Source: Octopus vulgaris | Taxonomy: Eukaryota | Assembly (NCBI GenBank): GCA_951406725.2 | Contig: OX597815.1 | Coordinates: 199,826,001-199,890,000 of the forward strand | Length of the DNA: 64,000 nucleotides | Reading direction: 5' to 3' | In this document: positions 10,955-61,913 of the stretch, piece after piece | Position numbering within the stretch: position 1 is the stretch's first letter | How the letters are laid out: each line of letters opens with the position of its first letter | Notes under the pieces: generated by a model | Told to the model about the DNA's origin: nothing | The model's database searches: none | The model's input: the letters and a program-made list of their open reading frames with translations, nothing else | Translations under genes and position numbers: made by a program

Positions 10955-11176
10955 CCATGTTGATTCGTTAGTTACTGCACGCATTTTTTTCTCTCCTCTC
11001 CTTTTTTCTCTCCTTCTTTTGTGTTTTTCTCTCTGTGTATCTTTCTGTTGAAGAGCGTAGGCTCGAAACGTTAAAGACTTGTTTTATTTATATTTCCTGA
11101 GCGCCATACTAATACAATTGTTTGTTTGTTTTCTACCTGCCTTCGTCTTTTGTCTATTTTCATAAAGCTTCCCGTT
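10952..11176 (+). mobile_element. Short (TA)n-inserted element with variant minimal hammerhead core (subfamily 1; Penelope-like terminal repeat)
   Basis: Sits between two (TA)n arrays. 11040-11077 reads TCTTT-CTGTTGAA-GAGC GTAG GCTC-GAAA-CGT-T-AAAGA. Homologs at 18810, 41905 and 51060. Confidence 0.7.
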
Positions 11177-11268
11177 ATATATATATATATATATATGCAG
11201 GCAAATTTAACTAATTTTCCGAAGATTGAAAACTTGATGAACGGTCTAAATCGATGTTCGAAACTTAT

Positions 11269-11579
11269 TGACAGTCTCATAAGGGAATTACACCACCGCC
11301 CTAGGAAACATCGACGTTTCCTGTCGTGTTTGACACATTTTCTGTGTCCTTATATTTGCAAAGGTTGCAGCCATCTCAGCTAGCGAGACTTACTACCCTG
11401 AACTGACGATGAGCAATACACTCAGAAACATATGTCGTCAGGTGCTTAGTCCCTGCTGGCGGGGTGATTATCTCCCCTTTGCAAATATAAGGACACAGAA
11501 AATGTGTCAAAGCCGACAGGAAACGTTGATGTTTCCTAGGGCTAAATGACGGTGGTGTAATTCCTTTACGGGACTGTCA
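11269..11579 (+). mobile_element. Long inverted-repeat element enclosing a hammerhead ribozyme
   Basis: Arms 11269-11364 and 11476-11579 are reverse complements, perfect over 36 bp (11329-11364 with 11476-11511). Confidence 0.85.
11397..11442 (+). ncRNA. Type I hammerhead ribozyme with minimal palindromic stem III
   Basis: CCTGA-A, then CTGACGA (11403-11409), stem II TGAG-caataca-CTCA, GAAA (11425-11428), palindromic ACATATGT, GTC triplet ending at 11436, then G-TCAGG. There is one A.G mismatch at the base of stem I. Confidence 0.85.
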
Positions 11580-12476
11580 CGTTATGTTGACAGTATACAA
11601 CCACTCTATCGCTCCACCACCGCTCATGTCTCTCTGAGTCATTTAGAAATTCAATATTTCTCATTCTTTTATTTATAACCAGAAAAGAATGCTACGGTTG
11701 GTCTTTGCAGATTTAGGTGTAACTGTAAAAAATGATGTCGAAATGCACACATTTTAAACCAGTCTTTACACTTGTGCACTATTTTTCTTAGCACAAGTAC
11801 ATAATATTGTGTTGCACTTTTTTACTGTGATATAAATATGTTCAAAGAAAACACCCCTTTGGCATTATAGAAAAGCAACATTTAGTTCATCATGTGAGAA
11901 ATCCGATATTGTTTATTAAATATGGTGCTATACTTCCAAATCATTGATAGCGTTAATTGATGGGCGTTAACAGTGGCTCCAGTTATGCCTTCGCTAACGG
12001 TTGTTTTGCATCACTACAAGAAAGAGAGGATCTTATATATTCTAATTAAATATATATGAATTGTAGTAAAGGAAAACAAAACCATACAAATTGGATTACA
12101 GAAGAGAAACTGCAATAATATTACTGCAATAAGATGTAACCGAAGCTGAACTGATGAAAATCAGCTTTAGTTATCACTATAAGACTCTGCTTTTCGCAAT
12201 CAAAATAATCTTTAATATTTGATATTTTTCCCAGGTGTTTATATATTTCTAGTTAACGTTTTAATGCACCTCAGTATGTTAATACAAATTTCCTGATCAA
12301 ACGCAGCAGATTCATATGAATATGTAGACTAATTGAATATTCAGCAATCAAAGACGATGCAAAAACAAAGTGAGAATAATTTAAGGCAATAGATGTAGTG
12401 TACTTTCATGTCTAGTATTTTCAGTACTTCTCTCTCCTTCTACCTTCTCTCCCTCCATCCCCACCTCTCTTTCTGT

Positions 12477-12509: not shown

Positions 12510-13125
12510 CTTTTTGAACGACGCCAGATATTGTGTATACTTTTTCTTGAACGAGTCGCCCGTCATTCCGATATACGTCTATGCTACTCCGTTGGGGTCC
12601 GCAATTTTGGTCTTGTATACGAGTTCCTTCTCGAGACAGTTGTTGTTTATATCGCAGCGGTTTGGGAATCTACAGTTGCATTGTCTTTCGAGGGTGTTTC
12701 TGATGTGTTTATTTTTATTATGATTAAATATTATTGACCCTATATTGGGGAAGCAACTATAGGTAACTTCTGCAGTATTTTTGTTGAAGTTCTTGTGGTA
12801 TTTGTGTGAATGTGGAAAGTGGCTGTCTATTAGTCTTAAGAATTGCCTAGCTGTGTTAGTAGCTACATTCATGCTATATGGTGGTTTAAATCATAAGATT
12901 TTCCTCTGTCTGCGTCTTCTTTGTCTATTTATATTTAATTCAGTGTAGTATATACTACTCTTAAAGTTGGATTTTTCTAATGCAGCATTATAATATGGGG
13001 CGGATGTTTCAAAAATGTCTTTGACGGCAGATAAATTGGAGACGTGCCTGCTAATGTTGTTAACCATATATTTGACTACAGCTGATGGGTGGTTGGAACC
13101 TATGTCTATGTATGGGGCTTCCTCG
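12506..13125 (-). pseudogene. Penelope-like element fragment: RT C-terminal region, linker and start of the GIY-YIG endonuclease
   Basis: Joined frames give YIDIGSNHPSAVVK...RKIL*FKPPYSMNVATN...YSCFPNI...CNCRFPNRCDINNNCLEKELVYKTKI...*TYIGMTGDSFKKKYTQYLASF. These carry the SNHP, F-x-PPYS, CxC..C..C and VY...YIG motifs typical of Penelope ORFs. Stops and a frameshift are present. Confidence 0.9.
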
Positions 13126-29341: not shown

Positions 29342-29759
29342 AGGCGGTGAGCTGGCAGAAAGGTTAGCACGCCGGGCGAAATGTTTAGAGGTATTTCGTC
29401 TGCCACTACGTTCTGAGTTCAAATTCCGCTGTGGTCGACTTTGCCTTTCATCCTTTCGGGGTCGATTAAATAAGTAACAGCTACGCACAGGAGTCAATAT
29501 AATCGACTAAATCCGTCTGTCTGTCCTTGTTTGTCCTCTCTGTGTTTAGCCCCTTGTGAGTAGTAAAGAAACAGCTATATTGTCCGTGTGAACGTTCTGC
29601 GTTCGAATTCCGCCGAGGTCGACTTTGCCTTTCATCCTTTTGGGGTCGATAAATTAAATACCAGTTACGCACTGGGGTCGATGTAATAGACTTAATCCCT
29701 TTGTCTGTCCTTGTTTGTCCACTCTATGTTTAGCCCCTTGTGGGCAATAAAGAAATAAG
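29342..29759 (+). mobile_element. SINE family B, tandem dimer
   Basis: A full unit followed by a 5'-truncated second unit from about 29592. Confidence 0.9.
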
Positions 29760-61715: not shown

Positions 61716-61913
61716 GGTCCCGGGTTGATTCGGGGTTAACCACAGTAAGTAAGGTACTCAATACATAGCAGAGTAAAATTAATTTATTATATAGAAGGAG
61801 CTTTACAGGACTAGTACTGTTTCATTCAAGAGAAATCTTCAGGAAGCTCCTTCCTGAAGATTTCTCTTGAATGAAACAGTACTAGTCCTGTAGAAGCTCC
61901 TTCTATATAATAA

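Follow-up and report, generated by a model that had tools for sequence, protein, structure and literature searches.

The hammerhead locus in the window (the whole 64,000-nt stretch of Octopus vulgaris DNA analysed here, microsatellite-rich and part of a 2.8-Gb genome) can be assigned with high confidence to a dispersed, head-to-tail 353-nt hammerhead repeat, or non-LTR retrozyme, of which it is one decayed copy. The family is very likely mobilised by Penelope machinery. As for the rod at this locus, it probably arose when a retrozyme copy was inserted by a Penelope-like reverse transcriptase/endonuclease acting in trans. The repeat adds a new family to a kind of mobile element already known; it is not a viroid-like RNA. 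The first-pass annotation had offered either an inverted Penelope end or a small ribozyme retroelement with a viroid-like rod. Both halves of this choice survive in part, as the locus is read here as a retrozyme copy with a Penelope-type 5′ inversion, and the viroid-like rod does not. Literature searches found no octopus retrozyme, and supplementary family lists, Repbase or Dfam may already hold the repeat.

The hammerhead of the window copy and its 353-nt family

Positions of the parts of the locus are collected in Table 1. The element extends to 11664 and its left arm is clipped; the inverted arms and the predicted rod at 11269-11579 are real, but this interval, previously described as a rod-like foldback element, is not a fixed unit. 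The left arm lacks its outer 30 nt (monomer 144-173), where the older repeat meets it. That older repeat gives 24 matches at 75-81% identity (self excluded), and one relative (L190) has a hammerhead-like motif on the minus strand. A very abundant repeat at 10965-11196, with a hammerhead-like core variant near 11049-11075, also adjoins the element, and, with 11186-11283 included, three repeat ends are stacked in a single (AT)n tract. The window copy shows neither a target duplication nor the expected left end, is free of the ORF1-only LINE insert described below, and bears a single hammerhead instead of two complete tandem ones. The single hammerhead marks the copy as inactive offspring and does not speak against the family being a retrozyme. 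Elsewhere in the window, a perfect hairpin of ~83 nt with arms of 39-40 bp occupies 61807-61889, and a tandem pair of a 184-nt unit at 29408-29755 resembles what we take to be a common SINE.

Table 1. Features of the hammerhead locus and its surroundings (window coordinates; monomer positions counted from the cut site)
Feature	Position	Strand	Basis
Neighbouring older repeat; a short stretch of similarity overlaps the clipped left end	11186..11283	-	
Inverted, 5′-truncated repeat copy, monomer 143 down to 40-43	11269..11364	-	
Inversion junction, in register with the natural hairpin of the family	11361..11364	.	
Forward copy, monomer 279-282 through the hammerhead to 228; about 300 of 353 nt	11362..11664	+	
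Type I hammerhead	11397..11442	+	descriptor, alignment, fold
Hammerhead stem I	11397-11402 with 11437-11442	+	
Hammerhead stem II	11410-11424	+	
Hammerhead palindromic stem III	11428-11435	+	
First fixed 3′ end of the family (monomer 173), putative reverse-transcription start	11600..11609	+	
Tail between the two fixed ends (monomer 174-228), beyond the interval first annotated	11610..11664	+	
Decayed Penelope-like ORF fragment with Hydra-type CxCX5C linker	12513..13124	-	motifs, homologues

The type I core begins at 11403 on the plus strand of the window, contains a 4-bp stem II, a palindromic stem III and GUC at 11434-11436, and is predicted to cut 3′ of 11436. A strict hammerhead descriptor returned this core as its only match in the 64-kb window, compared with none in 300 Markov controls, and the earlier account of a complete core with a cut at 11436 is thereby borne out. 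The same descriptor found no minus-strand hammerhead within the window. The suggested check with Rfam came back empty, with no match at E<10 over 11340-11500, meaning that the Rfam models miss this ribozyme; for the whole window, the matches listed (150 of 439) were mostly microsatellite matches to miRNA models. An ATG at 11409-11411 overlaps the start of stem II, ~27 nt ahead of the cut site. An ATG at this place is present in 37 of 101 pieces, with only a short frame after it, and one likewise overlapping the stem II start ~27 nt before the cut has been reported for an anole Penelope ORF.

The adjective "canonical" does not extend to stem I, in which A11402 opposes G11437, creating a mismatch at the first base after the cut that is private to the window copy. 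T stands at this position in 110 of the 113 aligned family pieces, and G appears only in the window copy as a private T-to-G change; the predicted pairing of stem I falls from 0.73-0.99 to 0-0.69. According to a review (PMC3138052), cleavage is at least 500-fold slower when this position is mismatched. Because of this private mismatch beside the cut site, the window ribozyme is probably impaired and would be a poor cutter.

The 353-nt period of the family comes from tandem copies, L011 and L034 being dimers. Of 2466 candidates in a genome search, 40 were scored, yielding 109 matches; searches with exact patterns found 69 hammerhead cores and, for the 3′ part, 205 and 292 matches. The 150 mapped loci were collapsed to 130 insertions. 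This sample consists of the top BLAST matches and the first-listed exact-pattern matches, with a bias to young copies and to contigs 1-12, and the median divergence of copies from the consensus is 4.9%. The consensus circle (44.5% GC) is predicted to fold into a branched structure with 66% of its bases paired (z -9.8 on the ribozyme strand and -6.9 on the other), in which an imperfect stem of 43 pairs ends in the hammerhead, itself left free. Although 42 of 130 insertions are longer than one monomer and wrap round the circle without an ORF, two tandem hammerhead cores occur in only 2 of 130, and source arrays are therefore rare or unsampled. As to coding capacity, no Penelope match lies inside the unit, and the frames that overlap it are all short.

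Across 95 hammerhead contexts from the 353-nt family and its sister families, the stems change in concert. Stem II is GAG/CTC in 68, GGG/CCC in 12 and GGA/TCC in 10, and stem III is formed by palindromes of differing length; as the descriptor required pairing, the evidence lies in the variety of the stems and not in the fraction paired. Sister families retain the hammerhead fold with altered stems. The older ones (L098, L146, L147, L159, L231-L296) are 72-86% identical and show compensatory stem changes and the variant cores CCGA and TTGA. Contigs from runs presumed to be RNA cover the family, and those reaching 11437 read T and not the G of the window; none of them spans 11698-11950 of the window. 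Their depth, which is not a copy number, is far greater on the 3′ part than on the hammerhead, and the excess perhaps comes from older sister families.

Insertion ends, inversions and the origin of the rod

Analysis of the forward 3′ ends (n = 129, numbered from the cut site) placed 60 near position 173 and 57 near 230, with the other 12 outside both sites. The 117 ends at the two fixed sites, which are 57 nt apart, define an optional tail. Truncation at the 5′ side is variable across the family, (TA)n targets are preferred, and (AT)n lies at the 3′ side in 65 of 130 insertions. A 5′-inverted truncated copy is present in 56 of the 130. Among the 45 inverted insertions with both outer ends at fixed sites, 44 have one of each site (p = 3e-12 against 50:50); in the remaining 11 of the 56, which include the window copy, one end or both lie away from these sites. 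Duplications of at least 8 nt flank 18 of 56 inverted insertions, compared with 1.0 in shuffled pairings, about four of the 18 being AT-rich and doubtful, and they flank 5 of 74 plain insertions, compared with 1.9 by chance. Tail, truncation and adjacent inverted copy form the pattern described for Penelope-like elements (PMC8557442; PMC3846280). For the anole Penelope, in vitro work showed that the tail spans the interval between two internal sites of reverse-transcription initiation and that each of the two target strands is cut and then extended (PMC11167929). The one-site-per-end count suggests paired priming on one RNA.

All of these insertion features also match Penelope ends, as would be expected if the repeat were only the truncated end (solo pLTR) of an autonomous Penelope, with no separate retrozyme life; moreover, of 57 retrozyme families in Xenopus, 24 correspond to known elements, which are Penelope termini in almost every case (bioRxiv 2026.07.22.740005). 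Such an origin is improbable here, as the 42 of 130 insertions noted above wrap round the 353-nt period, a Penelope protein matched only 2 of 130 insertion flanks, neither of them contiguous, and the sole shared upstream sequence is a separate LINE-type insert. No sequence common to the monomer and an autonomous Penelope was found among 31 other Penelope loci of two families, and no ORF with reverse transcriptase and GIY-YIG joined to the repeat was found in these loci or in the 130 flanks.

The Penelope ORF fragment previously placed about 1 kb away is real, on the minus strand and 0.85 kb from the element, but it is not attached to the repeat. A link between the two was rejected, none of the 19 closest other copies of the fragment having the repeat within 1.5 kb. 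The fragment is 37% identical to intact ORFs of 727-732 aa elsewhere in the genome, which carry the RWK, DKT and CxCX5C motifs that mark the (TA)n-targeting Hydra clade. Pfam recognised neither the fragment nor an intact ORF, and the Penelope label comes from motifs and homologues, one homologue having PF01541. Penelope-like loci with long open frames are L111, L112 and L113-L122, the intact 727-732-aa ORFs being at L111 and L112; these two and their kin are candidate mobilisers.

The 311 nt at 11269-11579 are predicted to form a rod at -191.9 kcal/mol (z -22) on the ribozyme strand and, at -181.6 kcal/mol, on the opposite strand as well. A rod with the ribozyme at its tip occurs in 6 of 130 insertions. 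Relative to the register of the family's own hairpin, four rod junctions are displaced by no more than 5 nt, which accounts for arm pairing that runs on into the ribozyme; the other two are 15 nt off. Inverted-arm stops are commoner at the base of the ribozyme-bearing hairpin (12 per 583 nt at risk at positions 25-69, against 12 per 2675 at positions 70-173; n = 34, bins set post hoc). The rod is an inverted partial copy, a by-product likely added during insertion by a Penelope-type enzyme. The great stability of the predicted rod and a geometry common to six loci would also be expected of a fixed viroid-like ribozyme element that transposes or replicates as a 311-nt unit. Against such a unit, the six rods among the 130 sampled insertions have six different junctions. 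Five of the six rods were found only by BLAST with a rod query, and the window copy is the sole rod among 108 pattern-found insertions. In addition, most copies have no second arm (74 of 130 lack an inverted arm, the very observation that the first-pass annotation named as contrary to a rod element), the family circle is predicted to be branched, and the arms show no G.U bias. A fixed rod unit is thus highly improbable. The bias had been drawn from a count of six G.U against two A.C pairs on the ribozyme strand. A recount of the window arms gives three G.U, one A.C and two other mismatches, and five inner G.U pairs belong to the hairpin of the family and not to the arms. Over all inverted insertions the arms contain 106 G.U and 120 A.C (p 0.39), and the strand argument for the arms was rejected.

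The preferred reading, insertion in trans, can be set out as follows. Tandem source copies would be transcribed, and paired hammerheads would cut the transcripts to monomers or circles, a step that is optional because insertion in the anole system did not need hammerhead cleavage (PMC11167929). The Penelope enzyme would nick both strands of an AT-rich target, and a single template would give rise to two cDNAs, one begun at internal monomer site 173 and one at 230. Both cDNAs would terminate early and join head to head. Where one stops in the 3′ arm of the ribozyme hairpin and the other in the 5′ arm, they could anneal by complementarity, and annealing through the hairpin would yield a continuous rod with the ribozyme at the tip. 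Of 308 polymorphic comparisons between the arms of single insertions, 261 show a shared allele (177 expected), which fits this reading and also inversion by fold-back self-priming, in which a site-230 cDNA folds on itself, copies back and is resolved at 173. Fold-back would further account for the short distance, at most 35 nt, between inner end and forward start in 16 of 34 cases (permutation gives 8.9, p 0.005), and self-priming has been proposed for head-to-head Penelope palindromes (PMC3846280). However, 42 of 73 plain insertions begin at 173, yet 173/173 inversions, which fold-back after a start at 173 should produce, number 1 of 45. Fold-back is rather unlikely, and paired priming is favoured over it by a slight balance of probability.

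LINE inserts upstream of the hammerhead

The upstream sequence common to five insertions proved to be a separate 1.63-kb element with one 460-aa ORF, which contains a zinc knuckle and an RNA-binding-like domain and no reverse transcriptase. Judged by its sequence, this element is an ORF1-only LINE derivative. A protein found in related loci has its only database homologue in Octopus bimaculoides. The derivative is present at L223 (G000:C1:33390000-33394000), L224-L228 and L230-L296. Retrozyme sequence lies beside 22 of its 30 closest copies. In 30 loci collected by a tail pattern, which was built from composite copies, a hammerhead core follows 23-40 nt downstream in 22; by eye, the same target, shortened or followed by a further copy, is recognisable in six of the others, and the last two are a locus with a variant core and an unrelated one. 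More distant ORF1-only arrays showed no retrozyme. Duplications of at least 10 nt (one mismatch allowed, no control) are present in 18 of 22 ORF1-only copies with both ends.

Several divergent retrozyme families have received the ORF1-only element at a distance of 20-40 nt upstream of the hammerhead core, and it piles up in tandem. In 42 composites, the distances of insert and host are weakly correlated (rho 0.22), and in 53 of 861 composite pairs the inserts are <12% apart and the hosts >25% apart, a few insert branches being truncation artefacts. A single ancient capture of the insert seems unlikely, as the offsets differ and near-identical inserts are found in very different hosts; switching between composites may be an alternative source of the mismatch between insert and host. 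Inside the insert, some composites show ends and inversions of the Penelope type.

Two-ORF LINEs with a related ORF1 and an endonuclease-reverse transcriptase ORF2 sit 29-36 nt upstream of a hammerhead in 3 of 30 sampled. Those at L318, L320, L326 and L328 share the target site of the ORF1-only element; L328 consists of tandem copies with a period of ~5.4 kb, and the tail examined there is followed by the target motif. We infer the Tx1 label for these LINEs from their domains and target habit, not from a tree. BLASTN gave no useful match between the ORF1-only tail and 30 two-ORF LINE tails, so that a two-ORF LINE is a candidate partner of the ORF1-only element. Beside some LINE or ORF1-only copies (L236, L241, L253, L317) lies sequence that we take to be snRNA-like or tRNA-like. 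Rfam at the gathering score returned nothing for L236, L241 and L253, and thus did not confirm a presumed likeness to U1 snRNA at L236. Literature searches found no LINE that targets retrozymes.

A tentative picture, with slightly less than an even chance of being right, is one of three-level parasitism with the retrozyme as the middle layer. A Penelope dimer would copy a single RNA from its two fixed sites, each target strand priming at exactly one of them; LINEs specific for this target, an ORF1-only derivative included, would insert 20-40 nt upstream of the hammerhead across divergent subfamilies; and the resulting 2-kb composite, bearing a ribozyme and encoding an RNA-binding zinc-knuckle protein, would then be moved by Penelope machinery.

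Relation to known systems and significance

Metazoan non-LTR retrozymes have units of 350-390 nt in mussel and of 331 and 353 nt in axolotl (Cervera and de la Pena 2020, PMC7229834). The octopus family resembles those described there in its non-coding tandem unit (170-400 nt), type I hammerhead, GC content below 45% (here 44.5%) and strongly folded circle with the ribozyme free, the octopus circle being a prediction. It differs in having mostly 1-1.5 units per locus, and the Penelope tail, 5′ inversions and target duplications of the octopus family are absent from that description. These features recall the insertions of endonuclease-bearing Penelope-like elements (Arkhipova et al. 2013, PMC3846280; Craig et al. 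2021, PMC8557442; Frangieh et al. 2024, PMC11167929), which are reported to share an optional tail, two start sites, 5′ truncation, an adjacent inverted copy, (TA)n targets and a hammerhead near the end. Unlike those elements, the octopus repeat has no ORF, and its tail is 57 nt, compared with 30-40. The one-site-per-end count is what the present analysis adds to the Penelope insertion pattern.

As in the minimal hammerheads described for Penelope elements (Cervera and de la Pena 2014, PMC4209133), stem III is palindromic, for dimer activity, and a G-C pair follows an extra base after core position 9. In contrast to those motifs, stem I of the octopus ribozyme is 6 bp, as in canonical metazoan type I motifs, and the extra base opposes an extra base on the other strand (U-A, C.A, U.U or A-U). 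The LINE inserts parallel target-specific Tx1 LINEs and HAL1 (Kojima 2015, PMC4494074; Kojima 2018, PMC5753468), in which LINEs favour another mobile element and pile up in tandem and ORF1-only derivatives occur; the octopus target, the strand just upstream of a retrozyme hammerhead, differs from those given in these accounts.

The mobiliser of animal retrozymes has hitherto been argued from co-occurrence and likeness to Penelope ends, and in the octopus family a unit that encodes no protein bears the insertion signature of Penelope. For the in vitro Penelope assay already published, one site per end is a sharply defined expectation as to how tails and inverted ends originate, and the 353-nt template with its mapped, putative start sites would be a handy substrate. 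The rod itself, as a by-product, is of little importance; the value of the family lies in the one-site-per-end rule and in the targeted LINEs.
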